A DNA stretch of 64,000 nucleotides from a phage, in sequence record PZ256263.1; one strand, 5' to 3'. The notes under the pieces are model-generated. The model saw nothing but the letters and a program-made list of their open reading frames with translations. It did not search any database and was not told the DNA's origin. The position numbers were made by a program, and so were the translations under genes. This document shows positions 3,108 to 57,102 of this stretch, piece after piece (position 1 is the first letter of the stretch; each line of letters starts with the position of its first letter).

Positions 3108-3116
3108 TAATGTATA
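3108..3116 (+). promoter_or_regulatory. TAATGTATA motif (candidate promoter for the phage sigma factor)
   Basis: Exact TAATGTATA; the same motif recurs upstream of several genes. No ORF lies immediately downstream, so function here is uncertain. Confidence 0.3.
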
Positions 3117-13617: not shown

Positions 13618-13866
13618 ATGAGCATCATTAATATTAAGGTTAAGGGCAAGGAGGAAATAGTCCTCCGTGTTAGAGATCTAAATATGTCAGATGTGTTCAC
13701 TCTCCAAGAGTGTCAGAATCAAAAGATTTATATGCTTACAGCTAAAAGCAGGGGCTGTCAACCTGCTGGAGCTGTTAACCTAGGCACTGGAGAACTACGT
13801 GTCATCTCTGGTGATATGGTTGTTGGTGAGAAGTTTATTAAGGCTGAAATCATCTTAACTTCATAG
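13618..13866 (+). CDS. Small paralogous protein, family A member 10
   Basis: SDVFTLQ ... IYMLT ... AVNLGTGEL family A pattern. Confidence 0.55.
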   Translation: MSIINIKVKGKEEIVLRVRDLNMSDVFTLQECQNQKIYMLTAKSRGCQPAGAVNLGTGELRVISGDMVVGEKFIKAEIILTS

Positions 13867-13874
13867 GTGATCTA

Positions 13875-14087
13875 ATGACACAAGAAGAGAAAGATATACT
13901 CATCCAGAATGCGTATCTACTGTTTTCCTCTGAGGATGTTCTGTTCGATCAGCTTTCTAAATTGTGGAAAGTGTCCGAAGAAGAGACTAAAGAGAAGTTT
14001 TATTCTGGCATAACAGAAGATTACAAATCTTTTCTTGGTGAGGTGCTGAGAGATCGGCATGTGTATCTAAGTAATTACGCCTGTTAA
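13875..14087 (+). CDS. Hypothetical acidic protein (70 aa)
   Basis: ORF with GGTGA-like RBS. Confidence 0.45.
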   Translation: MTQEEKDILIQNAYLLFSSEDVLFDQLSKLWKVSEEETKEKFYSGITEDYKSFLGEVLRDRHVYLSNYAC

Positions 14088-14320
14088 TAGGAAAACAAGT
14101 GATCACATTTAATGATTCTACAGAAGAAATGACCAACATGAAAGGCTTCGGTCAACGACAGCCTGACGGTTCAATTATCTGGTTCGTAAATGGACAGAAA
14201 AAGGTAGCTAAATAAGCCCTCTTCTCTCCTCCTTTTAGTACTATGACGCCTCTCTGTGGGCGGCCCAATTTGCGTAGGGAATTCCCTCTACGCAGTCATG
14301 ATTTTTAAGGAATTTCCCCT

Positions 14321-14554
14321 ATGTCTAAAGTAAGTGCAATTGATGCAATCCGTCAACCGTTCCAGTTCCAATCCAAATCAACCCAAACCTTCAGCGAGCC
14401 TAAGCAAATTCGCTTGGGTGGCACAGAGAAGACTGTGTTTGATCTGGCTAAAAACAAGAGCGTTACCGTAGTTGATGGTGGCACTCTGGTTAACGTTTCC
14501 CATCGTATCCGCACTGGCAAAACTGCCAAAGATCGTGCTAAGAAAGGTGAGTAA
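14321..14554 (+). CDS. Hypothetical protein (77 aa)
   Basis: ORF with AAGGAA RBS. Confidence 0.45.
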   Translation: MSKVSAIDAIRQPFQFQSKSTQTFSEPKQIRLGGTEKTVFDLAKNKSVTVVDGGTLVNVSHRIRTGKTAKDRAKKGE

Positions 14555-14796
14555 TGAAAATAGGGAAACCAGCTAAGGATGTTCTAGCGAAGATTGGTGA
14601 TATCTCTATTGGGGAAGTTTTCTCAGCTGAGCACTTTTCAAGTTACTACATGAGAATCCCTGACACTAAAGTTGAGGGTTGCATCATCCCTGCCAACGCA
14701 GTTAACCTGAACACAGGACACCTGTCTGCATTCAAACCTGATTCACAGGTTACTGAAATCAAAGATGCCTACCTCGCCTTTGGTGGGGATAAGTAG
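14554..14796 (+). CDS. Small paralogous protein, family A member 11
   Basis: IGEVFSAE ... SYYMRI ... AVNLNTGHL family A pattern. Confidence 0.55.
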   Translation: MKIGKPAKDVLAKIGDISIGEVFSAEHFSSYYMRIPDTKVEGCIIPANAVNLNTGHLSAFKPDSQVTEIKDAYLAFGGDK

Positions 14797-15027
14797 AGTA
14801 ACATCTATAGCCTTCTTCTGAGGGCTATGTGAGTTATTCTGACTCAACTAACCTAATCTTAATATATTTCCCGTATGGGGCCGATGCTAGGGCGAGGAAT
14901 GTTCCTCAAACATCCGTCGGATAGATATTTTAAGAGCAGGTTATCCACAGATATTGGGTAATATCTTTTTGGATTTAAAGCTTGGCTCTTTTCGGAGAGT
15001 CCTTTTTTAAATTCAATGAGAGGAAAT

Positions 15028-15180
15028 ATGTCTAAATTAGATTTAAAACTGCTAGCAGCAGCGATAGTGATTTGTGCACTAGCACTGGTAACGCAGAGAA
15101 CATCTGGATTTATTCAGTGTTTCTTTTCTGGGCAATCCACTTATCAGTGGGTTATTGACGAGTGTAAACAACAGGAGTAA
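15028..15180 (+). CDS. Small membrane protein (50 aa)
   Basis: GAGAGGAAAT RBS; hydrophobic LLAAAIVICALALV. Confidence 0.4.
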   Translation: MSKLDLKLLAAAIVICALALVTQRTSGFIQCFFSGQSTYQWVIDECKQQE

Positions 15181-15182
15181 GT

Positions 15183-15545
15183 ATGAATACACGTCCCATC
15201 AAGGGCAACGTTAATATTGAAACTCTGAACAAGGTTGCATCAAACCTCGGTGGAATGTCCAACGATGAGCTTGAGCAAGAACTTGCTTGGATTGCAAGTG
15301 GTATCAAAGTTGCTAAAGGTAAGATTGCTCGTGAGCAAAGCAACATGAAAGCTCACAAGTATGTCATCCGTCATGCAAACATGTTACCAGAGCGGGTTGT
15401 ACATCTTGCCCGTAAAAACTACGCAGAAGCAAAGAAAGCTCTGGAAGAAGCTACTTTCCAGAAGCATCAATTTATGAACAACTATAGAAACTTCCGAGAT
15501 ATTCTTTATATCCGTAAGTCGATTGAGTTGATTAAAAACCAATAG
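15183..15545 (+). CDS. Hypothetical protein (120 aa)
   Basis: ORF with GGAG RBS; helical, charged. Confidence 0.5.
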   Translation: MNTRPIKGNVNIETLNKVASNLGGMSNDELEQELAWIASGIKVAKGKIAREQSNMKAHKYVIRHANMLPERVVHLARKNYAEAKKALEEATFQKHQFMNNYRNFRDILYIRKSIELIKNQ

Positions 15546-15556
15546 AGGTTGGTATA

Positions 15557-16750
15557 ATGTTTCCAGTAACATTAGAAGATACTGAAGGTAATGTTTTAAC
15601 GGTCAACCCTCCTTGTTATGGGTTCCTTCAGCTTCGCAACTATAACGGTGGCGTTGATGAAGATGATGACGAAGATGAATACTTCGACCCTAACATGTAT
15701 GAGGCAACTCATGGGTGGAATATGCACGTTCGAGTGTGGCATGAAGAAGCTAACGTTCGTAGTGCTGATGGGGAAGAGTTCCTGTTGAGCCGAGAGATGG
15801 ATATGTGTAAAATCAAGCATATCTGGAACTCCGGAACTCACATGAAGATGTTAGGTTTTAGACGTTGGCGTGATGAAAAACCTGTATCCGCAGCTTTAGG
15901 TTGGGGTGCTATTGATTACGAAGGCGAGCTTAAAAACAACATTGAACGTTGGAATGACAAAAACCCTGAACATCGAACCACACCTCGTGCTGTACTGGAA
16001 GCTATGGAAGCATTTGTGGACAAAGATCGTCCCTCCTGTTTACGCTGGCACGATAAAGGTTTTATGGGGGTAGCAACTGAAAATGTTCCTGCTGATCGTT
16101 GTCTATTCTATTTGATGTTAGATCGAACCTTCTATTGTGAAGATGAAGAGAGTCAAGTTGAAACCTTCCTCCACAAATGGTTGGTTGAAGGCTGGACAAT
16201 CCTTCAGTCTTATGTTTACTCACGAATGGTTAGCACTTACACTAACCTCTTGGGTGAAACGAAAGCAACTCTGGTTGGTAATGATTGGGATGCTTGTATC
16301 TTCCCAGCGTCACTATTTACAGTCGGCATGGCTGATAAATACGCTGAAGCATTTCAAGTGCCTTGGCGTCAACAGTCGTATAGAGACGGGTGTGGTCACT
16401 TCCGTGATGAAGACTTTAAGTGGATTCATTATGAGAACGATGAAACAGCAGAATTGCGAGTTAACAACTCAATGTTCTTGCCAGTGATGCACCCCGATCT
16501 AGTAAAAGATGGGTCAGAGATACTTAAAGGTGATAATCTTTTGGTTAACTTTACCCGTCGCGTGTCTAAAAATGAGAGAACAGCTAACAGGCTAATCTAC
16601 GGCATTCGTGCCGAGGCTAAAGACCTGTTCAACATCTACAACATTATTCAGCGATTTAGTAGTGGAACTCTGGACCAAAGTTCGGAGTATTCAGTGATTC
16701 CATCCTCTGAGTGGGATGGTATTATGAGCGGATTATTTTTAGGAAAATAA
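15557..16750 (+). CDS. Hypothetical protein (397 aa), first gene of the amidoligase module
   Basis: Acidic DEDDDEDE run and conserved Cys/His/Trp; no family recognised by eye; contiguous with downstream module genes. Confidence 0.55.
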   Translation: MFPVTLEDTEGNVLTVNPPCYGFLQLRNYNGGVDEDDDEDEYFDPNMYEATHGWNMHVRVWHEEANVRSADGEEFLLSREMDMCKIKHIWNSGTHMKMLGFRRWRDEKPVSAALGWGAIDYEGELKNNIERWNDKNPEHRTTPRAVLEAMEAFVDKDRPSCLRWHDKGFMGVATENVPADRCLFYLMLDRTFYCEDEESQVETFLHKWLVEGWTILQSYVYSRMVSTYTNLLGETKATLVGNDWDACIFPASLFTVGMADKYAEAFQVPWRQQSYRDGCGHFRDEDFKWIHYENDETAELRVNNSMFLPVMHPDLVKDGSEILKGDNLLVNFTRRVSKNERTANRLIYGIRAEAKDLFNIYNIIQRFSSGTLDQSSEYSVIPSSEWDGIMSGLFLGK

Positions 16751-16760
16751 AAGGTTAGTT

Positions 16761-17732
16761 ATGTCAATCTCCACAACGATCGTACCTCAGAATCTTCAAC
16801 AAGATTTAGGGGAACAGAAGTTCTTAGGTCGTGGGTGCTTCGGTATTCACAACTACATGCAAGGCCAGTGTGTAAATGACATTAATGGTGAAGTTATCAC
16901 GGAAGAAGGGCGCTATCGTCGCTTCAACCGCGATATCAACTTGCAACTGGAGATGTTGAATTACTGGACTCACTCTTTTCATGGTCATGTTGCATCCGAT
17001 ATTGAAAAGAACTTGATTGAAACAGCGGACATTATGAACTCTATGTCTTGCTATCGTGATGTATTTACAATCACTTCAGCGAACAGTGTTGCTGTCAATC
17101 TTCGTGAGCATCCAGCAGATCAGATCTTCACAGGACTTATGCTCTTCCGTAGCATTCTGGAAGGGCAGTATCGTGGAATGGATTTCCTAGCAGAAGGAAT
17201 TGAAGACAGGGAAGAGTGGCTGAAGCGTAAACGCATCGGAATCGCTCTAGTGTTAGCTGGGTTAGGTCGTGACTTCTTCGGTGGGTGGTCTCAACGAGGA
17301 ATAGCCAATGGGAATAGCGAGAGCACCTCTATTGTTATTAATAACAATATGTCAGCAGCAGCATTCCTTCCTTTGGTTGTAGACTCTGATGAATACACGA
17401 AACAAGTATGGGTTCAAAATCCCTTCGGTGTTGGTGACAATGAGAATGGTTATGTTCGTAACCATAACCCAGAGGCCTTACGAAGATTTGCTCGTGCTAA
17501 AGATCAAGACCCAACTGAGTATGCAACAATGTCAGAGTGGTTAAGACTCTGGTCCATCTGTTATGGTCACAAACGTGAAGCAATAGACGACAAGTTGGGA
17601 AACATTACAGTACAAAACTTTACAGCCCGACTGATTCAAAGAACTGGAGCAGATTCCGGTCTTACTCTTGAAGAAGTTGGTAACACAATCTCATCTCTCT
17701 TTTCTGAACTAGTGGAGTATTACAATGACTAA
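16761..17732 (+). CDS. Hypothetical protein (323 aa), amidoligase module
   Basis: Tight spacing with neighbours; no recognisable motif. Confidence 0.55.
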   Translation: MSISTTIVPQNLQQDLGEQKFLGRGCFGIHNYMQGQCVNDINGEVITEEGRYRRFNRDINLQLEMLNYWTHSFHGHVASDIEKNLIETADIMNSMSCYRDVFTITSANSVAVNLREHPADQIFTGLMLFRSILEGQYRGMDFLAEGIEDREEWLKRKRIGIALVLAGLGRDFFGGWSQRGIANGNSESTSIVINNNMSAAAFLPLVVDSDEYTKQVWVQNPFGVGDNENGYVRNHNPEALRRFARAKDQDPTEYATMSEWLRLWSICYGHKREAIDDKLGNITVQNFTARLIQRTGADSGLTLEEVGNTISSLFSELVEYYND

Positions 17733-34675: not shown

Positions 34676-34698
34676 TAATGTATACTCCTTAATGTACA
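34676..34698 (+). promoter_or_regulatory. Tandem TAATGTATA / TAATGTACA motifs (candidate phage-sigma promoters)
   Basis: Exact consensus at 34676-34684 and a near copy at 34690-34698, 37 nt upstream of an AAGGAG RBS and the ATG at 34721. Confidence 0.4.
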
Positions 34699-41223: not shown

Positions 41224-41692
41224 AGAACCTGTAGTTTATAAAGACTCTATCAGAGATCAATATAATGAGATGTTAAAGAAACAAGCTGATTCTAATCTTC
41301 GTTATCAGAGGATAGTAGAACAATCTAACTTTAAAGGTTTACTTGAATGGTAACTTATATCCTTTACTTCTTAGCTTTCTTAGGAATAGTCTTTTTATCT
41401 ATTATTCTTGAATTTGGTTTAAGTAAGTTAGTTAATTATTTAGGTAGTAAGTAATTAATATTCTTTTAAATAGAGAATCAAAGTCCCTAGGAGTCCCCAC
41501 AACCTAAATCAAGGATTCCTTAATTCTCTATTTTTATCTCGCAGGTGGCTCCTGCCCTTCGGTACTTGCAAGGGATTCTATGAATTGCCCAATGTACAAG
41601 CCTGCAAGAGTTATTCTCTAACTCTACCTTATATACATTACCGTTAGTGAGTATCTACTACCAATAAAATGATACTTATCTTACAAAAGTTA

Positions 41693-41701
41693 TAATGTAT
41701 A
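41693..41701 (+). promoter_or_regulatory. TAATGTATA motif (candidate phage-sigma promoter)
   Basis: Exact motif 60 nt upstream of the ATG at 41761, inside a 400-bp AT-rich intergenic region. Confidence 0.4.
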
Positions 41702-46764: not shown

Positions 46765-47025
46765 GAGGGAATATGGTCTATGATCAAGATATTCTAGACG
46801 AATTGCTTAAAATGGCAAATCGCCTTACAGAGATTATCGAAGAAATAAAAGTCAGAGAAGAGTCTTACTTAGCAGCCGAGGAAAATTGGGATGTATGAGG
46901 ATGAATTTGATGGATTTTGAAAAGATAAAACAGATCAAAATTGATATGATGAAAAAGTTCAAAGCGGCTTATGATAAAGCTGTTAAAGAAGGAACTATCA
47001 CTTACAAGAAAATCTAGAAACAAAT

Positions 47026-47063
47026 AAAGCCCTCTTGGATTTCTCCTTGAGGGCTTTTCTTTT
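47026..47063. terminator. Bidirectional rho-independent terminator between convergent units
   Basis: Perfect 9-bp stem AAAGCCCTC / GAGGGCTTT with T-rich runs on both strands; between the last plus-strand ORF and the stop of the minus-strand gene at 47065. Confidence 0.7.
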
Positions 47064-47064
47064 A

Positions 47065-50000
47065 TCACTCCTTAGGTCGAACTCTTACACGGAGTCTCGA
47101 TTGACGCTTACTGCGTTCAAGCTTCTCTGACAATGAGCCACGTTTAATCTTCGGCTTCCCTTCGTCATTAAACTTCTCCAAGAACTGCAAGTACTCAGTA
47201 CGATTAGTTGTCTTGTAAGAAGGAATCTTAATATCAGGGTTCTCTTCAATCACACGTCTAATCTTCGCTACATCATCCCTACCAAGCAACTTACTCTTAG
47301 CCTGTTCAGCTGTAGAACCAAAGATCTTCTCCAGTGCTCTGGATTTGTTACCACCTGCGGAAGAAGCACCAAGTTTAGCAATGGCAGAGTAATCATCAGC
47401 ACTAAACCAAGCTACTGGATTATCACCATACTTCTTCTTGTTTTCAGCAGCAGTCTGCAATGCACGTACAAATCGACGGTTGTTACCAGCCTTATCTGCA
47501 CCATGAACCCTGTCTAAAACTTCAGCCACACTAGCCAACTCATCCAAGCTCTTCCCACTCAAGAAAGCTTTCTCTACTTTATCAGCAAATACCTCTTCCT
47601 GTTGTTTAATGCTTTCCAAGATATCAGAATTTGCTTGAGATCTTTCATCATCAGGCAGAGCAGAACGAATCTTCTCCATCTCCAACTCTTCCTCTTGCAG
47701 TTTCTTAATATCAGAGTCAACCTTCTGAGCCTCCTCAACAGCCTTCCTAGTATCCGCATCCAAGTTATCAAGCTTACCTTCAGTATCTCCAGTAACCTTA
47801 ACAATCTCTTTCTCGATAGGAGTCATTGATTCGTACTTCTTAGCAAACTTCTCAACATCAGCTTCGATACGAGAACGAGCATTCTGATGTTCAGTAGGAG
47901 TCATAGGCTTCTCAAGAAGTGCATAACGGTTATCCATATAGGAACCAGCAAATGCTTCAGCATCCTCTCTAGATATGCCCTTATCTTCCATAGTACGCAT
48001 CAGGCGGCGATGAATGTCATCACGTTGACGTTGTACTGCCATAAGGTCATTCTCACGCTCTTGAGCTGCTTTAAGCTCTTCACTGCGCTTAACTCTCTTG
48101 TCCACATCAAACTTACGGTTCATCTCTTCCGCTTGCTCATACATCTTGTTCAACTTGGCCTGACGAGCATCTTCCTCTGCATCAGTTAAACGACGCTGAC
48201 GATCAAGGTAATCTGACTCGGCGTTGTGGATACGTTCAATATAACTACGGAACTTCTCTGGAGGAACTGGAGAGTTCTTGTCATGGTGAGCAGCCAACTG
48301 TTTCAATGTACGAGATTCCTGAGCCTCACGAACAGGTTTAGGTAAACCTTCCATCATCTTCTCAATCTCACTCTTCTGAGCTGCAATAGCCTCTAGAGTT
48401 TTACGTTCATTCTCAACAGCAGCCTTAGCATCTGAACGAGCCTGAGCCTTTTTCCTGAGGGTAGCAAGACGTTCTTCACGAGCCTGTAAGTGCTTAGCAG
48501 CAGCTTCGTACTGAGAGTTCTTGTTAGCTTTGTTGAAGGCATTCACTTCTCTGTTGTAGGTGTTGATAAACCCATCCCAAATATCCTTCATCTGACCAAC
48601 TTCCAAAGCCTCTTCCCTACCAGCCTTCTCTGAAGATTTAAACTTCCCATCTACAAAGTCATTCATCAGCTTACGCATAGCATCTTTCTGAGCAGGACGT
48701 AAAGGTTCTGAATCAATCAAAGTATCAATCTCAGACTGAAGCTCTTTCTTCTGGTCAACCAGTTTAGGAGCATCCTTCTTATCGAAAGCTTTGTTTTCTT
48801 CTAGAGCTTGTTGATACAGTCTATCAAACTCATCCTCACGCTGCTTCTGATACAACCTTTCAGCACGACGTTTCAGACTATCTAAGTTAGTTACGTTCCC
48901 ACCTAAACCTTTCTCTTCAGCACGTAATGCCTTAGTAGCAATATCTTCTGGCAGACCACGTTCCTTAACCCATTCAGCAAAATTAGTTCGTACAGTGTTG
49001 TTCTTAGCAGTAGCAATACCTTGCTGAGAAGCCAGCTGGTTACGAGCCATTTCTTCATGACGTTCAGTGTTGATAGCATTATCTTCCTGACGAATACGAC
49101 GCATCAATTCCTTAGGATCACCCTTATAAGCCAAGAAGTTTTCAGCAGTAGCCTTAGCCTTAGCAGCCTTAGAGTACAGAGAACGAGCAAAACGTTCTGC
49201 ACGATCTTTAGTAGCCTGACGAGCAGCACTAGACATAGCAGCTAAACGTTCTACACCACTTGCCGGTTTAACGTCCTGTACAGCTTCCTTAGGAGCTTTA
49301 GGAGCACGGGCAGGTAATGGCTCAGCTTTGACTGTTGGTTCCTCTACGGTAGGTTCTGGAGCCTGTGCGGCCTCTTCTTGAGCACGTTGCTGTTCCATTG
49401 CACGACGCTCCTCTAAAGGGTTACGAGCAGGGAGAGGTTCAGCCTGTGGAGCTTGTTCGACCGGAGCTTCTTGAGCAGCTGCTGCCTCTTCTTCAGCGCG
49501 ACGCTGTTCAGCCTGACGGATAGCACGTCTTTGCGCAACTAAATCACGAGCTGTGAGAGAAGTTTCTTGAGGAGCAGAAGAAGGAAGATTTTCTTCCGTC
49601 ACAGTACTAGAAGAAGGCTCCCGAACCGGTTCGGTTTCCACGTCATTTTGCGTCTTAAATTTAATGTCATCAACAACTGGTTCTTCTTCCATCTTAGCAC
49701 GAGCTTCATCAGCAGTAGACTTAGCACGAGCAACTTCCAAATCACCACGAGCCAGAGAGCGGATAGCTTCACTGTTAGACTCTTGTTGCTTAACACGTTG
49801 AGAACGGGCACGCTGAGAAGAGAAGCGATTCAGAGCATACTTAGCAGCACCGAGAGTGTTCATTACCAGGCTAGGTGAAGAAGCCTCACGGAATCCATCA
49901 TCAGTCAGGGAAGTCCAACCACGATCTTGGTTACTCATAAACTTAGCCGTATTGTTCAGAGTGTAAGCATCTTGGATAGGATTAAAACCTTCAGGCATAC

Positions 50001-51486
50001 CTTTCAGTTTCTTCAACCCACCAATAGCTTTCTTCATCTCTGGAGAAACATTATCAGCCATCTTCTGTAGTTCAGCAGCTTTCTCTACAAAGTTATTAAA
50101 GTCTTCACCATCACGAGCTTTGAATCGATTTGCTTCATTGTAGAAAGTCTTGTAAGCATCAATGAAATCACGGTCGGCTTGTGTACGGTTCTTAATATCA
50201 ATTGGACTACCAGTAAAATCACCAGAAGCTCGGAGAGAAGTTAATTCACGGTCTAGGTTATCTAGAACATCTGTAAGAGCTTTCGTGTTGTCTTTGGTGT
50301 AGTCAGCCATTGCATCCTTCATAGCAACAGCCTGCTTCTGGTTGTGCTCATTATCAGCAAATGCTTTACCACGAGTCTTAGCAGGAGAAGCTAAAGGATT
50401 AAGGCCCGGAATGTTGGAATGTTCTTTCTGAACAGAAGCAGCTTTCTCAGCACGAGCTTGGTCAGTATTAAGAATACGCTGAGCAGCAGGAGAATCCACA
50501 GCAACAGCATCTGTAATACGGAATCCATTCTCATCCAGAAGATTCAGAGCAGAAGCAGCGTTAGCAGTTTCAGCTTTAGAGTAAGCTTCTTTCAGTTCAT
50601 CAATGTTCTTAGCACTACGAATTAGTTCATCATCAGCAGCAATATCAGTCTTCGCATACTCTGGAGTATTCTTGAAGACAGCAGAATCCGGACGGCTAAT
50701 CAATCCATGAACCCCACCAACTGCACCACCGAATGCAGCACCCATAGCACCTTCTTCGATAGCACCTTCTAATACATTAGCAAAGGTTGTGTCATCTCCG
50801 TGCTTATTCTGAGCTTCAGCAGCACCTACAAGAGCACCACCTTTAGCACCAGCCACTGCGTTACTAGCAACGTTCTGACCAATACGTCCAAGTGTGGACT
50901 CAGCTGTACCAACAGCACCCGGAAGGATTCTCTGAGCCGCATAGTTAGCACCACCAACTAAGGCTGCATCTAGAATAGACTTATCTTCTCCCTCTTCAGG
51001 GGTTTGGTCTGCATATGCGCGACCTGTCTCACGACCTGCTATGATAGCAGCAGCAGCCAATGGGTTAGCAACTGTCAAACCGATATCACCAGCAACGCCA
51101 GCATACTGACCGACAGTTTTACCAATCCCATCCTCAATCTTATCCATACGTTCTTTCAGAAGGTTCTGAGAGTTCTCTTGGATACGCTTACCATAACTAG
51201 TCTGTGCTCCAGCTAGATTCTCACCAATCTCAACTAAACCACCAATACCTTTAGCAGCACTAGCTGCAATGTTTGCACCACCGGATTGAAGAGCATTTGA
51301 CACACCTTGAGCAAACTCACCTATAGCACCACGTTCTTCTTGTTGTGGTTGTGCTACTGGTTGTTCCTCAGGAATAGAGCCACCTGCTGCCTTATATTGT
51401 TCTCTCATTTGAGCTTGTTGCTCCGGAGAGGCATTCAGATACGCAGGAGCTTTGGAAGCTTCTTCCCACGGTTTAATGTTAGCCAT
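47065..51486 (-). CDS. Large virion-associated protein (about 1474 aa); internal/ejection or tape-measure-like
   Basis: Very long charged, Ala/Glu/Lys-rich ORF; second in-frame ATG at 51486 has a GGAG RBS (track start 51531). Confidence 0.6.
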   Translation of the reverse strand: MANIKPWEEASKAPAYLNASPEQQAQMREQYKAAGGSIPEEQPVAQPQQEERGAIGEFAQGVSNALQSGGANIAASAAKGIGGLVEIGENLAGAQTSYGKRIQENSQNLLKERMDKIEDGIGKTVGQYAGVAGDIGLTVANPLAAAAIIAGRETGRAYADQTPEEGEDKSILDAALVGGANYAAQRILPGAVGTAESTLGRIGQNVASNAVAGAKGGALVGAAEAQNKHGDDTTFANVLEGAIEEGAMGAAFGGAVGGVHGLISRPDSAVFKNTPEYAKTDIAADDELIRSAKNIDELKEAYSKAETANAASALNLLDENGFRITDAVAVDSPAAQRILNTDQARAEKAASVQKEHSNIPGLNPLASPAKTRGKAFADNEHNQKQAVAMKDAMADYTKDNTKALTDVLDNLDRELTSLRASGDFTGSPIDIKNRTQADRDFIDAYKTFYNEANRFKARDGEDFNNFVEKAAELQKMADNVSPEMKKAIGGLKKLKGMPEGFNPIQDAYTLNNTAKFMSNQDRGWTSLTDDGFREASSPSLVMNTLGAAKYALNRFSSQRARSQRVKQQESNSEAIRSLARGDLEVARAKSTADEARAKMEEEPVVDDIKFKTQNDVETEPVREPSSSTVTEENLPSSAPQETSLTARDLVAQRRAIRQAEQRRAEEEAAAAQEAPVEQAPQAEPLPARNPLEERRAMEQQRAQEEAAQAPEPTVEEPTVKAEPLPARAPKAPKEAVQDVKPASGVERLAAMSSAARQATKDRAERFARSLYSKAAKAKATAENFLAYKGDPKELMRRIRQEDNAINTERHEEMARNQLASQQGIATAKNNTVRTNFAEWVKERGLPEDIATKALRAEEKGLGGNVTNLDSLKRRAERLYQKQREDEFDRLYQQALEENKAFDKKDAPKLVDQKKELQSEIDTLIDSEPLRPAQKDAMRKLMNDFVDGKFKSSEKAGREEALEVGQMKDIWDGFINTYNREVNAFNKANKNSQYEAAAKHLQAREERLATLRKKAQARSDAKAAVENERKTLEAIAAQKSEIEKMMEGLPKPVREAQESRTLKQLAAHHDKNSPVPPEKFRSYIERIHNAESDYLDRQRRLTDAEEDARQAKLNKMYEQAEEMNRKFDVDKRVKRSEELKAAQERENDLMAVQRQRDDIHRRLMRTMEDKGISREDAEAFAGSYMDNRYALLEKPMTPTEHQNARSRIEADVEKFAKKYESMTPIEKEIVKVTGDTEGKLDNLDADTRKAVEEAQKVDSDIKKLQEEELEMEKIRSALPDDERSQANSDILESIKQQEEVFADKVEKAFLSGKSLDELASVAEVLDRVHGADKAGNNRRFVRALQTAAENKKKYGDNPVAWFSADDYSAIAKLGASSAGGNKSRALEKIFGSTAEQAKSKLLGRDDVAKIRRVIEENPDIKIPSYKTTNRTEYLQFLEKFNDEGKPKIKRGSLSEKLERSKRQSRLRVRVRPKE

Positions 51487-51524
51487 AACGTCTCCTTTTA
51501 TAAATAAAAATGTCCTACCCCCTA

Positions 51525-51533
51525 TATACATTA
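51525..51533 (-). promoter_or_regulatory. TAATGTATA motif (candidate phage-sigma promoter)
   Basis: Minus-strand CTATAATGTATATA, 39 nt upstream of the ATG at 51486. Confidence 0.4.
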
Positions 51534-51553
51534 TAGAAGGCAGGACTTAGGTC

Positions 51554-53209
51554 TTATTGCGTGAACCAGCTAGTGTCTTCGACAGCTGATAAAGCACCGT
51601 TCAGTTTAGGATTGGTTGCTGCACCACCAACTGCTTCTTCTGCTTGTTCAGAGAAAACACCTAGAGGGTCATAGAAACCACCAGAAGGGATTGCACGGTT
51701 AACCAATGCAGTAGCTCTCTTCTTATCCATACCAGAACCGATGTACGCTTCGATAGTAGCTCTCTTAGCATCAGCAACACCTTTCATTGCAGAGGTGTGA
51801 CCAACGTTAGCTTGCTTACGAGCATAAGCAAGAGCAGAATCAGTAGGACGCCATCCAGATTTCAGTGCAAACTTGTTGCCAACACGAACGAAGATTGATG
51901 GGTCTTCTGCAAAGTGCCCCAAGTCTTCTTCGGTAAGAGAACGAGTAGCACCGATTTCAGCTCTTGCGGAGTTCATGATAGCTTGCATGTAAGCAGAACG
52001 AGCTGTCTGATAGTCTTTATCTTTAACCGCTTTGTCAGCCAAATCCAAATCTTTGTTGGACTGGTTAAACAGACCACCTTTCTCTGCCCACTGCTTAGCA
52101 ACTGTACCTTCAGCTGTGTTCTGAGCAAGACGAACTTCTTTAGGGTTAAAGTTAAAACTCTGAGCAGCTTGTTCAGCACGTTCAGCCTTAACTTTATCAC
52201 GATAACCAATCAACTCTTTCTGACGTTCAAAGTTCATGTTAGCTCTTTCTTCAGCGGCACGACGAGTTTCATCAGCACGCTCACGCATAGTTTGCTCTTG
52301 AATCTGTTGACGTCTATCCCATTCAGCATTTTGTCGTTCTTCACGAGCAGCATACAGCGCTTCTTTCTGAGCAGGGTCTACAGCTCTCATCTTCAGTAGA
52401 GAAGGGTCTCCGTTAGCAATAGCAGCTGCGATCGAGTCTTGAGAGAAGCCTTGTTCAATCAGAGCATCACGGTTAGCTTCCAGTTGCTTCTTAGTCTCAT
52501 CTTGATTAGCCATTCCCTGACCAATCTGGAAAGCTTCAATAGGAGATTTACCTGACATAATGGAAAGACCTACACCCATCAAACCTGTGTAGAAACTAGA
52601 GTTCTGATAGAATGGTTCTTTCTGTAGCTTGTTCCAAGCTTCCGAAGGGTCTTTAGCTTTCGCAACTTGCAAGATATCATTGTTAACACGTTCCTGATCT
52701 TTAGCACGAGTAGCAGCAGCCATTCCATCACCAGTATCTTGTCCTTGAGCAAGAGTATTAATCACACCTTGTGCCTGTTCCACCTGAGAAGGAGTAAACT
52801 CCATAGGACCAGCTTCTAACGGTTTAGTAGGAGGTGTTACCGGAAGAGGGTCACTAGGCATAAGCCCAGCATCCTGTAAACCTTGATCAGTGGATAGGTT
52901 AGGGTTAGACGCTACAGGGGCCGGTGCTCCAATATCAATACCCTGAAGACTGGTAGGAGTCCCTTGATTCTGCTGTTCCATAAGACGTTGCTGGAATCCC
53001 GGATTAACCATAGCATTCTGATCTTCTTCTGCCTGAGAGACAAGACCCGCAAGAGATGAAGGTACAGCAGGACGTTGATACATAGAAATATCTGCTGTCT
53101 GAGTTGGTCTAGCCATATAAGGAGAGGCCGAAGCCGCTCCCGGATTAACACCATAGAAAGTATTTCTCGGGTCACGACTTCTGACCTGAGCGTAAGTTGT
53201 CTGTTGCAT
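51554..53209 (-). CDS. Virion-associated protein (551 aa)
   Basis: AGGAGA RBS; Gln/Ala-rich with a helical charged C-terminal half; within the late cluster. Confidence 0.55.
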   Translation of the reverse strand: MQQTTYAQVRSRDPRNTFYGVNPGAASASPYMARPTQTADISMYQRPAVPSSLAGLVSQAEEDQNAMVNPGFQQRLMEQQNQGTPTSLQGIDIGAPAPVASNPNLSTDQGLQDAGLMPSDPLPVTPPTKPLEAGPMEFTPSQVEQAQGVINTLAQGQDTGDGMAAATRAKDQERVNNDILQVAKAKDPSEAWNKLQKEPFYQNSSFYTGLMGVGLSIMSGKSPIEAFQIGQGMANQDETKKQLEANRDALIEQGFSQDSIAAAIANGDPSLLKMRAVDPAQKEALYAAREERQNAEWDRRQQIQEQTMRERADETRRAAEERANMNFERQKELIGYRDKVKAERAEQAAQSFNFNPKEVRLAQNTAEGTVAKQWAEKGGLFNQSNKDLDLADKAVKDKDYQTARSAYMQAIMNSARAEIGATRSLTEEDLGHFAEDPSIFVRVGNKFALKSGWRPTDSALAYARKQANVGHTSAMKGVADAKRATIEAYIGSGMDKKRATALVNRAIPSGGFYDPLGVFSEQAEEAVGGAATNPKLNGALSAVEDTSWFTQ

Positions 53210-53222
53210 ATTTATCTCCTAA

Positions 53223-54191
53223 TTAAGTACTAGCCAACCCACCGATTACACCCCCAGCTAATGCACCCCAAGGCCCAAAGGAAGAGCCAGCTGCTGCACC
53301 ACTCATAGTTCCACCAAGGAAACCACCTTTGCCACCAGATGTTTTAGTAGTTGTAGTTTGTCCGAGAGCACCGTTAAGTACACCTGCTGCACCGAGTTGG
53401 TTATTGATATCTTGCCATCCCCAATTAGCTGCGTTCTGAGCATTCTGGTAGGCATTATCATATTCATTCTGTTGTTGCTGTTGTTGCTGCAACCCTGCAT
53501 TCCATTGATTCATTATTTGCTGTTGAGACAAATTAGCACCCTGCTGACCTAGGTTAGAAAGGTTAGAACCAATATTAGAAAGACCAGAGAGAGCAGCTGC
53601 CTGATTCTGTCTATTACCAGAGAGGATGCTTTCAGCTTGGCTAATAGCCGAGTTATAGGCACTATTGGTAATATCTGTTGCTTGGCCTTGCATCTGATTC
53701 AGAGCATCACCTTGGGCAAAAGACTTAGCCATACGAGCACCTGAACCTTGTTGACCAGCATACTGTTGAGCTAACTGAGGAAGAGCATTACGTGCCAAGT
53801 TCTGTTGAACCTGTTCATTATTAGCTGTAATGGCTGCTTGCACAGCGTCATCATCATACAGTTGACCAGCGAGAGCACCAATCTGTTCTCCAGTAATCCC
53901 ACCTTGTCCAGAGAGGCTCTGATAGCCTTTATAGGCATTATCCAGATACCCTAACCCTTGACCTGCTGCATCCATGTATTGCTGTGAGAGAGTGCCTAAA
54001 GCGCCAGATTGTGCTAGGTTATTAAGTGCCTCTGTCTGATTATTATTAAACCCTACATTGTCACGATAAACATAATCCCCTGAACTAGTATTACCAATCT
54101 GTTGGTTAAGCTGGTCAATATACTGTTGAATGTATTCAGGGCGAATCATTTGGGAAGTAGTTTTACTACCCCCGCCTCCGAAAAGTCCCAT
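53223..54191 (-). CDS. Q/N/G/A-rich low-complexity virion protein (322 aa)
   Basis: Strong compositional bias (QQQQQ, GxG runs). Confidence 0.5.
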   Translation of the reverse strand: MGLFGGGGSKTTSQMIRPEYIQQYIDQLNQQIGNTSSGDYVYRDNVGFNNNQTEALNNLAQSGALGTLSQQYMDAAGQGLGYLDNAYKGYQSLSGQGGITGEQIGALAGQLYDDDAVQAAITANNEQVQQNLARNALPQLAQQYAGQQGSGARMAKSFAQGDALNQMQGQATDITNSAYNSAISQAESILSGNRQNQAAALSGLSNIGSNLSNLGQQGANLSQQQIMNQWNAGLQQQQQQQNEYDNAYQNAQNAANWGWQDINNQLGAAGVLNGALGQTTTTKTSGGKGGFLGGTMSGAAAGSSFGPWGALAGGVIGGLAST

Positions 54192-54203
54192 ATCAAATCT
54201 CCT

Positions 54204-55256
54204 TTAGTTTGCTCCAAATGCCCCTAAGACACCACCTAAGATATTACTACCTGCTGTGGATAACCAGTTAGACTGACCTTTCTGTTGAGAAAGGTTAGAA
54301 CCTCCAATCATAGGACCAGCCATTCCAGATTGCCCACCTGAGTTGTTATAGGAACTCCAAGCATTCTGAGTCTGTTGGTTAGGAGAGAAAGCACCCATAC
54401 GACCTGCAATACCTAATCCAGTGATACCAGCACCTAGGAGCTGTTGTCCAGTATTAACCCCCGGAGCAGCATTCTTAATCGTGTACCCAGCCATTGGGCT
54501 TACACTATTTAATACATTAAGTTGGTTGTTAAGCTGATTCCACCCATACTGTTGAGAGCCAATAGCGTTCTGCCAATTAATATCAGCTTGAGCTTGGGCT
54601 TGTTGCTGTTGTAGATTACCAGCCATGAGTTGATTCTGGATAGCTTGTTGAGTTGCCTGAACACCTTGAGCACCAAGATTGAGATTCTGTCCAGCCAATC
54701 CTGACTGAGCACCAAGTAAGCCCCTCTGGAAGTTTTGGTCTTGTTGAAGAGCACTGATTCCCATATTCTTGCCACTGATAGTACGAGCTAAGTTTGTATT
54801 AGCACTGTTCAGAGCAGCACCTTGAGCAGCAGCTCTACGGAGAGAACCTGAATCAGAACCATTTCCGAGGGATACATTGGAAGCTGCTTTGCTAGTAGCT
54901 TGTGCAAGGGCTGAGTTATTCAAACCTTTACTAAAGTTATTAACCCCTTCAGCTGTTACTCCACCACCATTGACAATATTCTGATACTGCTGTGCAAGAG
55001 AGTTTAATTGGTCCAACCCTTGCTGTGTACGAGGCGTGTACATATCAGCCAATTGCTTCTGAGTAGTAGAAGCTGCTAAGTTGTTCAGAGCACCCTGTTG
55101 GTTGCCATTAAACCCAGCCAGTTGTTGGGAGATGAATCCCGGATCGTTGTTCTGCATATTCTGAGCATTAGCAACAATCTGCTTCAGCAGGGCATCAACC
55201 TGAGAGGAAGGGGCCACTGTGGTTTTGCTAGAAGCTGATTTTCCAAATAAAGACAT
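54204..55256 (-). CDS. Q/N/G/A-rich low-complexity virion protein (350 aa)
   Basis: Same composition as 53223-54191; possible paralog. Confidence 0.5.
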   Translation of the reverse strand: MSLFGKSASSKTTVAPSSQVDALLKQIVANAQNMQNNDPGFISQQLAGFNGNQQGALNNLAASTTQKQLADMYTPRTQQGLDQLNSLAQQYQNIVNGGGVTAEGVNNFSKGLNNSALAQATSKAASNVSLGNGSDSGSLRRAAAQGAALNSANTNLARTISGKNMGISALQQDQNFQRGLLGAQSGLAGQNLNLGAQGVQATQQAIQNQLMAGNLQQQQAQAQADINWQNAIGSQQYGWNQLNNQLNVLNSVSPMAGYTIKNAAPGVNTGQQLLGAGITGLGIAGRMGAFSPNQQTQNAWSSYNNSGGQSGMAGPMIGGSNLSQQKGQSNWLSTAGSNILGGVLGAFGAN

Positions 55257-55275: not shown

Positions 55276-56058
55276 TTACTTTACACCAATGCTAGCCAGA
55301 CGTCTGAGCACTGCTTGTGTTTGTGGACTGTACTGAGAACCTGCTGCATGTGGTGCACTTGCCCTCTGAACTGTTTGAGAAGTGGGAGGTTTACCAGCAA
55401 GCATAGCAGCTACCCCTAATACTGCATTACCAAAGTTCTGTTGAGGTTTCTGATTTTCGCCTTCCTGCACTTCATCAGAGTAAAACTCTACTGGATTTCC
55501 ACCTAAAGCACCTGTCTTAGAAGCAGCAATCTCTGCCTGAGTTGGAGCTTGTGCGGCCTTCTCTCTATCTAACAAGTCAGGACTAAACTGATTGACTGGT
55601 TGAACAGCTTGCAAAGCTCCAACAGGGTTAGCAATCTGAGAAGCTGCATCACCATAGAAAGGAAGAAAGTGTTTGTTGTTCATTGAGTCAAGGGCTTGAG
55701 GTGTAAATCCCTTTTTACCAGCGAACATTTGCTTAGCACCACCGATACCTTCTGAGTAACCAACCATTGCTTTCTTAACATCACCATTAAAAGCCTTTAA
55801 GTTATCTCTAATATAACGAGCACCCATATCAATATTCTTTGCTGGGTCAAGTCTGTCTTCTAGTTTGTAACCGTAATCTTTAGCCAACCCTTTACTAATC
55901 TGCATTAAACCTACAGGACCAGTTCCAGAAGCCACTGTAGGACGACCACTAGACTCTCTTTGGATTACAGCATGAATCAAAGCAGCAGGAATCCCATACT
56001 TCTTTGAAGCCTGTTGAACCATTGGGTCTAGTTCTTCAATACCCATTCTAATTGACAT
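55276..56058 (-). CDS. Lytic transglycosylase (SLT domain) virion protein (260 aa)
   Basis: IQRESSGRPTVASGTGPVGLMQISKGLAKDYGY is a classic SLT/goose-lysozyme-like motif. Confidence 0.8.
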   Translation of the reverse strand: MSIRMGIEELDPMVQQASKKYGIPAALIHAVIQRESSGRPTVASGTGPVGLMQISKGLAKDYGYKLEDRLDPAKNIDMGARYIRDNLKAFNGDVKKAMVGYSEGIGGAKQMFAGKKGFTPQALDSMNNKHFLPFYGDAASQIANPVGALQAVQPVNQFSPDLLDREKAAQAPTQAEIAASKTGALGGNPVEFYSDEVQEGENQKPQQNFGNAVLGVAAMLAGKPPTSQTVQRASAPHAAGSQYSPQTQAVLRRLASIGVK

Positions 56059-56067
56059 AATAACTCC

Positions 56068-57102
56068 TTATTGTATACTCCTGAATATTTTCCTAGCATC
56101 TAATATCGGAATGCTTAATCCGAGAGCACCACCCCCTCCTAAATCATATTGACTACTCCAAGAGTAAATCATCCTTCCGAAACCTGTACCGAAAGAAGAG
56201 CCATTCATCATGTGAGATCTTGTGTGTTGAAAATACCAACCACTAGCCTTACCTCTTATTGCTCCAGCACCATAAGATAGAGGTATCATTGGATAGGCCA
56301 AAGATGTGTTACCACCACTCATAGGCATAAATCCCTCAACATTAAAAGGGGTTCTATATGTAGAAAAAACACACTGAGACCCATTTGGAGAAAAGATATT
56401 TAAACCTCCATTGTGGGTTGGTACTCCCGAACCATCACAGAAGACGGCAATCCTAACACCACCAATGTACCCTGTTTGGTTTGTGTTACCATTATCATGA
56501 GATCTGTTCTGGTACACATAAACAACCCTATTAGATGGGTTGTATAGTAGCCCTGCTCCGCCGTTACTCCAATTCGCGTAGACAGTTGCTCGGCTCATGT
56601 CAAAACCACCAATATCTGGTATTTGAAGAGAACCGTTTATATCACCCTCCCAAGCCCAAATACATTGACCAACAACTCCAGAATCAGAGATTGAGAAATA
56701 GTCAGCAGAGTTGGAGAATGTGATTCCATAGTTCCTGTTAGCTCTAGGCCATATTTGATACACATTAAAAGCCATATCAAATACCCAACCATTTACGTTA
56801 TAGTCCATAGTAACTCTGAAGGTTGAGTTATTAATAACAGATATATCCGTTAGCCAATATACATCAGACGTTACATTAGGAGGTATATATCTCTCCCAAA
56901 CAACAGACCCTGTTGGAACTACAACTATCTGACCACTACCATCCCAACCACTTATAGGCAAATCACAGGTATTTCCGCTAAAAGAGAAATTCCCACTGAC
57001 TCTATTTCTGAGTTGAGGGAATGTGCTACCACTATCAATATAAATATCAGCAGGGGCCGCTGGACCCGGACCAACCGGGCGTGTCCATATTCCATATGCC
57101 AT
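56068..57102 (-). CDS. Putative tail protein (344 aa)
   Basis: Gly/Asn/Ser/Trp-rich beta-type composition; 1-nt gap to the upstream tail gene. Confidence 0.45.
   Translation of the reverse strand: MAYGIWTRPVGPGPAAPADIYIDSGSTFPQLRNRVSGNFSFSGNTCDLPISGWDGSGQIVVVPTGSVVWERYIPPNVTSDVYWLTDISVINNSTFRVTMDYNVNGWVFDMAFNVYQIWPRANRNYGITFSNSADYFSISDSGVVGQCIWAWEGDINGSLQIPDIGGFDMSRATVYANWSNGGAGLLYNPSNRVVYVYQNRSHDNGNTNQTGYIGGVRIAVFCDGSGVPTHNGGLNIFSPNGSQCVFSTYRTPFNVEGFMPMSGGNTSLAYPMIPLSYGAGAIRGKASGWYFQHTRSHMMNGSSFGTGFGRMIYSWSSQYDLGGGGALGLSIPILDARKIFRSIQ

Follow-up and report, generated by a model that had tools for sequence, protein, structure and literature searches.

A five-gene ejection-protein cassette with duplicated Q/N-rich proteins in a phiEco32-like Kuravirus

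The stretch of DNA analysed here (64 kb, referred to as the window) belongs to a phiEco32-like Kuravirus and was 99% identical in DNA sequence to Escherichia phage ev_rybdy3 and 96.5% identical across the whole region to phiEco32. The distal end of its structural operon, on the minus strand, is occupied by five late genes which are orthologous, in the same order and with the same lengths, to phiEco32 gp22-26 and SU10 gp20-24 (percentages are protein identities to SU10):

55276-56058, minus strand: SLT ejection protein, 260 aa (phiEco32 gp22; SU10 gp20, 98.8%)
54204-55256, minus strand: Q/N/G/A-rich ejection protein, 350 aa (phiEco32 gp23; SU10 gp21, 97.4%)
53223-54191, minus strand: Q/N/G/A-rich ejection protein, 322 aa (phiEco32 gp24; SU10 gp22, 99.4%)
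51554-53209, minus strand: all-alpha ejection protein, 551 aa (phrog_12130; phiEco32 gp25; SU10 gp23, 95.1%)
47065-51486, minus strand: charged ejection protein, 1473 aa (phrog_14629; phiEco32 gp26; SU10 gp24, 98.4%)

The last four had been flagged in a first-pass annotation and were recovered on the minus strand with unchanged coordinates, each with a ribosome binding site (RBS) of the AGGAG type 5-8 nt before its start codon. Gene sizes and intergenic sequences were identical to those of SU10 and phiEco32, from which the phage differs in nothing of substance, being another isolate of the genus, and the same ejection annotation is given in a comparative study of Kuravirus (PMC9965538). A distant uncultured relative carries the same cassette (SLT, 334, 322, 563 and 1422 aa; 27-53% identity), which again closes the late operon. 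None of the five proteins contains a single cysteine (P~8e-19).

The longest ORF for the largest protein reaches an ATG at 51531 (1488 aa); the RBS-bearing start lies at 51486, giving 1473 aa, and is also the one annotated in phiEco32, SU10 and ev_rybdy3. The upstream ATG sits within a promoter motif, one of three putative transcription signals flanking this gene:

51512-51546, minus strand: hairpin with a 15-bp stem followed by ATTTTTATTT
51525-51533, minus strand: -10-type motif TAATGTATA of phage sigma factor gp36 promoters
47015-47057, no strand assigned: GC-rich hairpin lying between an A-run and a U-run

The first hairpin, identified by a terminator scan in the 67 nt that separate the 551-aa gene from the 1473-aa gene, has a predicted RNA folding energy of -22.9 kcal/mol (z=-3.45; 0 of 200 shuffled sequences folded as well), is identical in sequence in phiEco32 and SU10, and looks like an intrinsic terminator. 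The motif TAATGTATA occurs five times in the window relative to 0.78 expected, a count reached in none of 100 shuffles. A 'late promoter P26' has been reported, as has a consensus AATGTA with its centre at -11.5 (PMC12276001), and from name and motif the site at 51525-51533 is probably that promoter, belonging to gene 26. Directly 3' of the stop codon of the 1473-aa gene, the RNA of 47015-47057 was predicted to fold into the stem AAAGCCCUC...GAGGGCUUU, followed by AUUUGUUU; the SU10 record has a terminator annotated at the matching place, and the hairpin resembles a terminator acting in both directions, placed where late and middle transcription units converge.

Relative to the background composition (Q 3.3%, N 6.2%, G 7.2%, A 6.8%, charged residues 24%; Q+N 9.5%), the 350-aa and 322-aa proteins were strongly biased, with Q 14.3% and 15.2%, N 12.3% and 9.9%, G 13.4% and 15.5%, A 13.1% and 13.0%, and charged residues 6.6% and 8.7%, respectively. 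Q+N made up 25-27% of both (binomial P=4e-20 and 3e-16), and sequence entropy in the biased ORFs was 3.64-3.67 bits as compared to a background of 4.2. The first-pass annotation had described three low-complexity proteins, which held for these two, the bias of the third, the 551-aa protein, being mild. The poly-Q that it noted in the two is modest (a single stretch of seven Q for the 322-aa protein and of four Q for the 350-aa protein).

The same annotation had suggested that the two Q/N-rich proteins are diverged duplicates and had proposed aligning them. BLASTP with composition adjustment gave a significant alignment (30% identity over 309 aa, E=5e-13), and both proteins matched the profile of phrog_4287 ('DNA ejection protein') over its full length (E=6.6e-118 for the 350-aa and E=6.3e-109 for the 322-aa protein), while Pfam and NCBIfam searches gave no match to the biased Q/N-rich ORFs. 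A motif, NWQNA.G.QQF.WNQLNNQLNVLNSVSPMAGYT, was strongly conserved among homologues and positions remained invariant down to 40% identity, and the proteins are therefore not junk low-complexity sequence. Phage GAP52 gp094, a single-copy form, was nearer to the 322-aa protein (phmmer E=6.5e-20, versus 1.3e-6 for the 350-aa protein), which marks the 350-aa protein, as judged by sequence, as the more diverged of the two paralogues. Towards their C-termini both contain Gly-rich segments:

54384-54440, minus strand: Gly-rich, weakly hydrophobic segment LLGAGITGLGIAGRMGAFS, aa 273-291 of the 350-aa protein (Kyte-Doolittle 19-residue mean 1.16)
54210-54266, minus strand: second Gly-rich segment, aa 331-349 of the 350-aa protein (19-residue mean 1.03)
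53241-53297, minus strand: C-terminal Gly-rich segment, aa 299-317 of the 322-aa protein (from composition and hydropathy)

With Kyte-Doolittle means of 0.9-1.2, these segments are weakly hydrophobic and fall below usual transmembrane helices. In the LLGAGITGLGIAGRMGAFS segment of the 350-aa protein, G275, L281, G282, G285 and G288 were invariant or nearly so family-wide.

Structure prediction, another check that had been proposed, was of use for one of the two proteins modelled by AF2. The model of the 350-aa protein placed helices at 18-252 followed by a coil tail, but is uninformative owing to its low confidence (pLDDT 41.5). The 551-aa model (mean pLDDT 68.8) was all-alpha, with residues 1-135 disordered and the rest helical, including a 72-residue helix at 279-350. 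Described at first pass as Gln/Ala-rich, the 551-aa protein is so to a mild degree (A 14.2%; Q+N 13.8%, P=7e-4). It was also the fastest-diverging member of the cassette, with 68% identity to its ECBP2 counterpart as compared to 80-86% for the others, and being both all-alpha and fastest-diverging it fits criteria that have been proposed for IVP-C/gp15-type proteins (PMC4819975). Foldseek with this model gave no significant match in the PDB (best E=0.07), and in BFVD homologues from other prolate podophages only. Invariant alignment columns define its core:

52385-52648, minus strand: invariant core of the 551-aa protein, aa 188-275

Within it, GLMGVGLSIMSGKSPIEAFQIG was compared with a motif of long fused relatives, AGLGMMAG.SP.A..NIG.G, giving an hhalign E-value of 0.003 at a probability of 10% over 35 columns, and of 0.043 with a re-extracted subset; homology between the two is unproven.

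The protein described at first pass as charged and of about 1470 aa has 1473 residues, 32.8% of them charged. Three regions stand out by composition and hydropathy:

50677-51306, minus strand: Gly/Ala-rich hydrophobic N-terminal region, aa 61-270
49252-49686, minus strand: Pro/Glu/Ala-rich variable linker, aa ~601-745
47068-47160, minus strand: basic C-terminal tail, aa 1443-1473

The highest Kyte-Doolittle mean (1.59) was found at aa 131-149. Helicity is compatible with crude propensities and with the presence of Pro/Gly-free stretches as long as 93 residues, and the charged remainder of the protein is probably helical. A homologue search produced little to compare, the best 120 of 153 matches all being at least 96% identical and thus lacking diversity. 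In a distant relative (L005) the N-terminal 300 aa were best conserved (35-46% identity), and Pro-rich repeats replace the linker.

The adjacent gene, noted earlier as an SLT-domain neighbour of the flagged ORFs, matched PF01464 at residues 13-116, in the N-terminal part of the 260-aa protein (E=1.2e-23; 83.3 bits relative to a gathering cut-off of 21.3). The catalytic Glu-Ser motif QRESSG...GLMQ could be seen in its translation, the SLT assignment applying to this gene of the cassette only, and the protein also matched the N-terminal SLT domain of T7 gp16 (phmmer, E=8e-13).

The first-pass annotation had likened these proteins to internal or ejection proteins forming a trans-envelope channel, and had named their absence from purified virions as the observation that would tell against this. 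In SU10, LC-MS/MS detected all five orthologues, gp20-24, in phage particles with 39-73% sequence coverage, the Q/N-type proteins with 49-53% (PMC4281155). SU10 gp20-24 were present in virions and absent from genome-release intermediates, and were named ejection (core) proteins on account of that loss (PMC9509320, main text and Supplementary Fig. 4C). These 95-99% identical orthologues are packed with the DNA in the prolate head and leave the particle at genome release, and because the window proteins are nearly identical to them, virion presence and loss at release can be carried over; as regards internal location and ejection, the earlier suggestion was right. The channel is another matter: SU10 gp20-24 are invisible in cryo-EM maps, and a trans-envelope channel has been proposed for SU10 from cryo-ET and protein loss (PMC9509320). 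That the five proteins assemble into such a channel, and which of them builds which part, is something we infer.

The region is thus very likely the ejection-protein ('core protein') cassette of a phiEco32/SU10-type Kuravirus, and the following sequence of events is proposed as part of the same reading. After formation of the tail nozzle and loss of the needle, the proteins would traverse the portal-tail channel before or together with the DNA. The 260-aa SLT protein would cleave peptidoglycan, and the 350-aa and 322-aa near-uncharged Q/N paralogues, in the position of T7 gp14 and P22 gp7, would oligomerise, possibly as a hetero-oligomer, and insert their C-terminal Gly-rich hydrophobic segments into a membrane where the conduit ends distally. 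The 551-aa all-helical protein would make up a periplasmic tube in the manner of T7 gp15. The 1473-aa protein, anchored by its Gly/Ala-rich hydrophobic N-terminal region, would extend in the direction of the cytoplasm, or enter it, by means of its Pro-rich linker and long charged part, like T7 gp16 except that here a separate gene carries the SLT domain. The outer-membrane, periplasmic and inner-membrane roles suggested here are assigned to each protein from size, gene order and composition. The Ala/Gly/Gln/Asn-rich, charge-poor and cysteine-free composition could be an adaptation to storage in an unfolded or loosely folded state, to threading through a narrow channel and to refolding in the oxidising periplasm.

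The Q/N module is not confined to these phages. Whereas tblastn against a phage collection, with the low-complexity filter on, retrieved about 100 Kuravirus-like genomes only, an exhaustive profile search, by which alone the wider family was reached, found 367 cluster representatives. In GAP52 gp094, phiM5 gp27 and MW202675, a Peptidase_S74 domain directly follows the module, as it does in 11 of 48 long homologues, and in relatives the S74 cleavage motif comes directly after the equivalent of the Gly-rich LLGAGITGLGIAGRMGAFS segment. S74 is an intramolecular chaperone domain that folds trimeric fibres. Relatives of the module are often fused to cell-wall hydrolases of the SLT, SleB or M15 type. 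The S74-bearing members of phrog_4287, among them GAP52 gp094 along with the 'DNA injection protein' of phage 7-11, phiM5 gp27 and an 'internal virion protein D' in MW202675, have the Q/N-rich module and Gly-rich hydrophobic end in common with the Kuravirus proteins, and many run on into muralytic and large C-terminal regions in one polypeptide. Unlike these, the Kuravirus proteins are stand-alone, duplicated and lack S74, no match to Peptidase_S74 being found in the 350-aa and 322-aa window proteins at E<=0.1. Sinorhizobium phage phiM5 gp27, a Q/N homologue annotated as 'putative tailspike', was found in the phiM5 particle proteome and is followed by three genes carrying an 'internal virion protein' annotation. 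In MW202675 the module lies directly 3' of an acetyltransferase gene, which occupies the IVP-A position there; the module is therefore in the IVP-B (T7 gp14) position.

The S74 fusions bear on a different view of the Q/N proteins, as trimeric fibre-like or plug-like parts of the tail, related to tailspikes or needles and lost along with the needle, and not channel builders from inside the head. S74 is best known from trimeric fibres and not from channels, it follows the module in the three named proteins and in nearly a quarter of the long homologues, some of which match tail-fibre PHROGs, phiM5 gp27 carries a tailspike annotation, and SU10 release intermediates lose the needle gp18 together with gp20-24 (PMC9509320). 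The tail-fibre PHROG matches, however, fall mostly on the S74 part, which the window proteins do not have; the SU10 tail is described as portal, adaptor, nozzle, needle and fibre, with gp21 and gp22 not listed (PMC9509320); and the module has muralytic and gp16-like proteins as fusion partners and is found in the IVP-B position. A tail role is consequently considered improbable. Slightly more so is a function of the proteins, in particular the 1473-aa one, as an internal core or scaffold that organises DNA or helps set the length of the unusually elongated prolate head, their release being incidental. 'Putative core proteins' is the term of the SU10 authors (PMC9509320), the family occurs in prolate (C3) podophages (ECBP2, GAP52, Privateer, and Aeromonas and Vibrio phages), and the 1473-aa protein is long, charged, probably helical and ends in a basic tail. 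Yet no ordered internal core was seen in SU10 (PMC9509320), which has a separate scaffolding protein, gp8; the SLT domain and the hydrolase fusions of relatives point to cell-wall penetration; and the virion homologue phiM5 gp27 comes from a LUZ24-related phage, which is not among these prolate coliphages. That the biased ORFs are artefacts of composition or remnants without function, as low entropy and the lack of Pfam and NCBIfam matches might suggest, can be dismissed almost entirely: the published SU10 proteomics has already refuted it (PMC4281155), every ORF is preceded by an RBS, and invariant columns persist in homologues down to 40% identity in a family of 367 cluster representatives.

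Within the preferred reading of the genes as an ejection cassette, the domain fusions allow a further, tentative proposal on origin, which we regard as possible but on balance doubtful. The Q/N module would constitute a separate, widespread class of small ejection proteins with no relationship to T7 gp14 or P22 gp7. Ancestrally, the module would have been folded as a trimer by a C-terminal, auto-cleaving S74 chaperone, whose cleavage would free it from a polyprotein also bearing muralytic and gp16-like parts. In Kuraviruses, the parts of this polyprotein would have come to be encoded by separate genes, S74 would have been lost and the module duplicated, an old duplication that these phages would have kept, and the resulting 350-aa and 322-aa paralogues would have to co-assemble into the hetero-oligomeric, membrane-penetrating tip of the conduit.

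The ejection function class was already known and has been shown experimentally for SU10; the biological gain is accordingly small and the finding largely ordinary. It does illustrate that ejection proteins can be identified from composition and gene context by reading raw sequence. To the known picture the analysis would add, at the level of sequence comparison, the family link between Q/N module, S74 and hydrolases, the negative homology result for T7, P22 and LUZ24, and the shared absence of cysteine. The association of the Q/N module with an auto-chaperone and cell-wall hydrolases and the near absence of cysteine may both help work on podophage genome delivery, as sequence handles by which to find and dissect ejection proteins that have diverged past the reach of homology searches.

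Comparison with the ejection proteins of T7, P22 and LUZ24 gave no detected homology, by sequence or profile, for the Q/N, 551-aa and 1473-aa proteins, the SLT protein with its gp16 SLT domain match to T7 being the only one of the cassette with detected homology. For T7 gp14, gp15 and gp16, phmmer E-values were at least 0.15 and hhalign P-values (profiles A1 and A2) at least 0.18; for P22 gp7, gp20 and gp16, the best hhalign P was 0.042 over 25 columns, which is not significant; and for LUZ24 gp53, gp51 and gp50, hhalign gave E-values of 0.36 and 0.41 and BLASTP a best E of 0.052. A sequence search of solved structures with the 350-aa and 1473-aa proteins and two family profiles returned nothing meaningful. 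Polyubiquitin profile matches (E~1e-4) were discarded as chance, being a sum over repeats (E~0.6 for a single ubiquitin).

The likeness lies in organisation and composition. T7 gp14, gp15 and gp16 are located inside the head, released at infection and encoded by small, medium and large genes ending the structural module, as here, where the small-medium-large order downstream of the tail genes is kept and the medium (551-aa) protein has an all-alpha model; they are also Ala-rich and nearly free of cysteine. The Kuravirus cassette differs in having five proteins and not three, a separate 260-aa SLT protein, and a small component of 320-350 aa that is duplicated and extremely Q/N-rich, and no ordered core stack was seen on the SU10 portal (PMC9509320). 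The P22 ejection proteins are unresolved inside the capsid, as are SU10 gp20-24, but the P22 set lacks a muralytic domain. P22 gp7 resembles the Q/N proteins in composition (A 17%, G 14%, Q 10%, N 8%, charged residues 10.5%) and has a Gly-rich hydrophobic C-terminus, even with a PWGA; the resemblance of this tail to that of the 322-aa protein is qualitative only (composition-adjusted BLASTP E=0.28).

The structural-gene lineages of LUZ24 and phiEco32 are connected in published trees, and gene order and sizes in the cassette mirror Bruynoghevirus Pa223 gp56, gp54 and gp53 (LUZ24 gp53, gp51 and gp50; 313, 505 and ~1055 aa) as they do T7 gp14/15/16. The Bruynoghevirus cassette likewise ends the late operon before convergent genes, and its small protein, about twice the size of T7 gp14, has a Gly-rich C-terminus; there is, however, one small protein and not two, and no SLT protein in the cassette, and Pa223 gp54 has been seen around the portal, nothing comparable being reported for SU10. 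The nine T7, P22 and LUZ24 ejection proteins together contain one cysteine in 5,443 residues and are Ala-rich like the cassette proteins, so that near-total absence of cysteine is common to the ejection proteins of four phage groups without detectable mutual sequence similarity.

By DNA comparison, about 100 phage genomes matched the 8.2 kb at 47065-55256, the closest being Escherichia phage ev_rybdy3 (99.0%), with phiEco32 at 96.5%; these and their kin are Kuraviruses (Gordonclarkvirinae), E. coli podophages with prolate heads. Gene correspondences were read from annotated relatives (percentages are protein identities to phage SU10):

55276-56058, minus strand: SLT protein, 260 aa; phiEco32 gp22, SU10 gp20 (98.8%)
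54204-55256, minus strand: Q/N-rich protein, 350 aa; phiEco32 gp23, SU10 gp21 (97.4%)
53223-54191, minus strand: Q/N-rich protein, 322 aa; phiEco32 gp24, SU10 gp22 (99.4%)
51554-53209, minus strand: 551-aa protein; phiEco32 gp25, SU10 gp23 (95.1%)
47065-51486, minus strand: 1473-aa protein; phiEco32 gp26, SU10 gp24 (98.4%)

In SU10, gp20-24 were detected in particles with 39-73% peptide coverage (PMC4281155). Šiborová et al. found them in virions and missing from genome-release intermediates, and concluded that they are ejection proteins, of which gp20 degrades peptidoglycan and the remainder probably lengthen the tail nozzle so that it crosses the periplasm; the cryo-EM maps resolved none of the five (PMC9509320). 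A comparative Kuravirus paper repeated this annotation (PMC9965538). The first-pass annotation had proposed internal or ejection proteins beside an SLT protein, and this is supported, because the near-identical SU10 proteins are present in virions rather than absent from them and are lost at genome release. That the products of the cassette are ejection proteins, forming a trans-envelope conduit or aiding one, is thus judged quite likely, with considerably lower confidence in the role assigned to each individual protein. A head core or length determinant is considered very improbable. Little is new here, because the class of function was already known from sister-phage experiments; minor additions are the leads from S74 and hydrolase fusions and from cysteine-free composition.

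The ORFs are real and lie at the coordinates first given, each with an AGGAG-type ribosome-binding site before it, and the annotated start of the 1473-aa gene (51486) is preceded by AAAGGAGAcgtt. A 1488-aa ORF was rejected as a mechanical over-extension, its ATG (51531) lacking a ribosome-binding site and lying inside the motif TAATGTATA. The extreme compositional bias originally reported held for the 350-aa and 322-aa proteins (Q+N 26.6%, P=4e-20, and 25.2%, P=3e-16, respectively, vs 9.5% in the window's other proteins; charged residues 6.6% and 8.7% vs 24%; Gly 13-15%, Ala 13%) and not for the 551-aa protein, where Gln and Ala were only mildly enriched. In the 1473-aa protein 32.8% of residues are charged, and cysteine is missing from all 2,956 residues of the five proteins (P~8e-19). 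The GenBank names of 1473-aa homologues ('TolA protein', 'erythrocyte binding protein 1', 'putative liver stage antigen') and of one 350-aa homologue ('similar to streptococcal hemagglutinin') are artefacts caused by sequence that is charged or low in complexity. The Q/N proteins are not random low-complexity sequence, since some columns stay invariant among homologues down to 40% identity, which also share a block of strong conservation and, after it, a hydrophobic segment rich in Gly; spurious ORFs, as an explanation of such biased composition, have at best a slim chance of being correct.

The two Q/N proteins were confirmed as diverged duplicates (30% identity, composition-adjusted E=5e-13; same PHROG). 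A distant uncultured relative (L005) carries the same cassette at the end of its late operon (SLT, 334, 322, 563 and 1422 aa; 27-53% protein identity). Because the paralogues pair as orthologues between the two loci (322/322 at 53%, 350/334 at 41%; cross-pairs about 30%), the duplication is old and both copies were retained. The 350-aa gene looks like the derived duplicate, since GAP52 gp094 is nearer the 322-aa copy (E=6.5e-20) than the 350-aa copy (1.3e-6). When Kuravirus is compared with Suseptimavirus (ECBP2), the fastest divergence is that of the 551-aa protein (68% vs 80-86% for the other cassette proteins). By tblastn, several Kuravirus genomes matched this protein in the first 307 residues only (75-94% identity), which suggests mosaic exchange inside the gene. 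The 1473-aa protein is best conserved in its N-terminal 300 residues and has a variable, Pro/Glu/Ala-rich middle, where the L005 counterpart (13710-17978) has Pro-rich repeats (DQTLVR.P, seven times) and the window protein two AEPLPAR copies. A SIR2-domain gene (L005 20372-21005) lies among the convergent genes adjoining that cassette. Just upstream of the window's cassette (56068-57102, minus) is a DUF6453 protein (SU10 gp19) that carries the annotation 'membrane protein'. Its identity to the ECBP2 counterpart is only 42% (neighbours 80-86%); it differs from ejection proteins in having 4 Cys and 11 Trp, and might be a variable component related to host interaction.

Ahead of the 1473-aa gene, a 67-nt gap contains TAATGTATA, the motif of promoters recognised by gp36, the sigma factor of the phage; the motif occurs five times in the window (0.78 expected). 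The gp36 consensus and a 'late promoter P26' have been published (PMC12276001), and the copy in the gap is probably P26. The signals are:

51525-51533, minus strand: TAATGTATA, probable P26
51512-51546, minus strand: stable 15-bp hairpin, then a T-run (z=-3.45), with TAATGTATA in loop and stem
3108-3116, plus strand: exact TAATGTATA copy
34676-34684, plus strand: exact TAATGTATA copy
41632-41640, minus strand: exact TAATGTATA copy
41693-41701, plus strand: exact TAATGTATA copy, divergent from the preceding one
47015-47057: GC-rich hairpin with A-run and U-run flanks, directly after the 1473-aa stop codon (47065)

The hairpin/promoter sequence is the same in phiEco32 and SU10. It resembles a terminator that would stop transcripts coming from the 551-aa gene, with an overlapping promoter from which transcription would restart for the 1473-aa gene; a predicted start near 51518 would keep just the hairpin's 3' arm in the new transcript. 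Each of the other four copies is a candidate middle or late promoter dependent on gp36. The hairpin at 47015-47057 probably terminates transcription in both directions, between the converging late and middle genes, and the SU10 annotation places a terminator at the equivalent position.

An exhaustive profile search (E<=1e-3) with the Q/N module (phrog_4287) gave 367 cluster representatives. Among 145 newly listed matches, 74 were long proteins (600-1650 aa) with the module as the N-terminal ~300 residues; in 11 of 48 long matches scanned a Peptidase_S74 intramolecular chaperone directly followed it, and five of the 48 carried a cell-wall hydrolase (SLT, SleB-type Hydrolase_2 or Peptidase_M15_4). 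Module plus S74 makes up GAP52 gp094 ('DNA ejection protein') and gp27 of Sinorhizobium phage phiM5, which was found in the phiM5 particle proteome and whose gene precedes three for internal virion proteins. The 1185-aa 'internal virion protein D' of MW202675 (module, S74 and SLT) comes directly after an acetyltransferase gene, the T7 IVP-A position, so that its module takes the place of IVP-B (gp14). In these proteins the S-D...K start of S74 immediately follows the Gly-rich hydrophobic segment. S74 cleaves at such a site in endosialidases; if it also cut these proteins there, the mature module would stop at the same point as the 322-aa Kuravirus protein. As a lead and not a result, the S74 association hints that the module may be trimeric. 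An external trimeric plug or fibre is held to be unlikely. The GAP52 cassette (L009) contains no SLT gene, and its single Q/N+S74 gene is adjoined by a 280-aa, extremely Gly/Ala/Ser-rich hydrophobic protein (21343-22185; Kyte-Doolittle mean up to 1.64) and by a Q/P-rich one of 177 aa; the small components are thus interchangeable between lineages.

For the 350-aa protein the AF2 model was unreliable (pLDDT 41.5; helices at 18-252, coil tail). That of the 551-aa protein was moderate (68.8), with residues 1-135 disordered and then an all-alpha body including a 72-residue helix; it had no significant match among solved structures, and in BFVD matched solely prolate-podophage counterparts (ECBP2, GAP52, Privateer, Aeromonas and Vibrio phages). 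Beyond the packaging and release demonstrated for orthologues, we infer that the SLT protein would open the peptidoglycan, the Q/N pair would oligomerise with its Gly-rich ends entering a membrane at the conduit tip, and the helical 551-aa protein would form a periplasmic tube, while the 1473-aa protein would anchor itself through the hydrophobic region near its N-terminus and extend by way of the linker and the charged part.

In sequence and profile comparisons, the Q/N, 551-aa and 1473-aa families showed no similarity to T7 gp14/15/16, P22 gp7/20/16 or LUZ24 gp53/51/50 (equivalents of Pa223 gp56/54/53). Homology was found for the SLT protein alone, with the SLT domain at the N-terminus of T7 gp16 (E=8e-13). 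The likeness to known ejection proteins thus lies in layout, size, helicity and composition, not in family membership. Composition is remarkably alike: the nine ejection proteins of T7, P22 and LUZ24 contain a single Cys among 5,443 residues and are 11-17% Ala, and the cassette proteins have no Cys at all; P22 gp7, like the Q/N proteins, is Gly/Gln/Asn-rich and charge-poor, with Gly-rich hydrophobic terminal segments.
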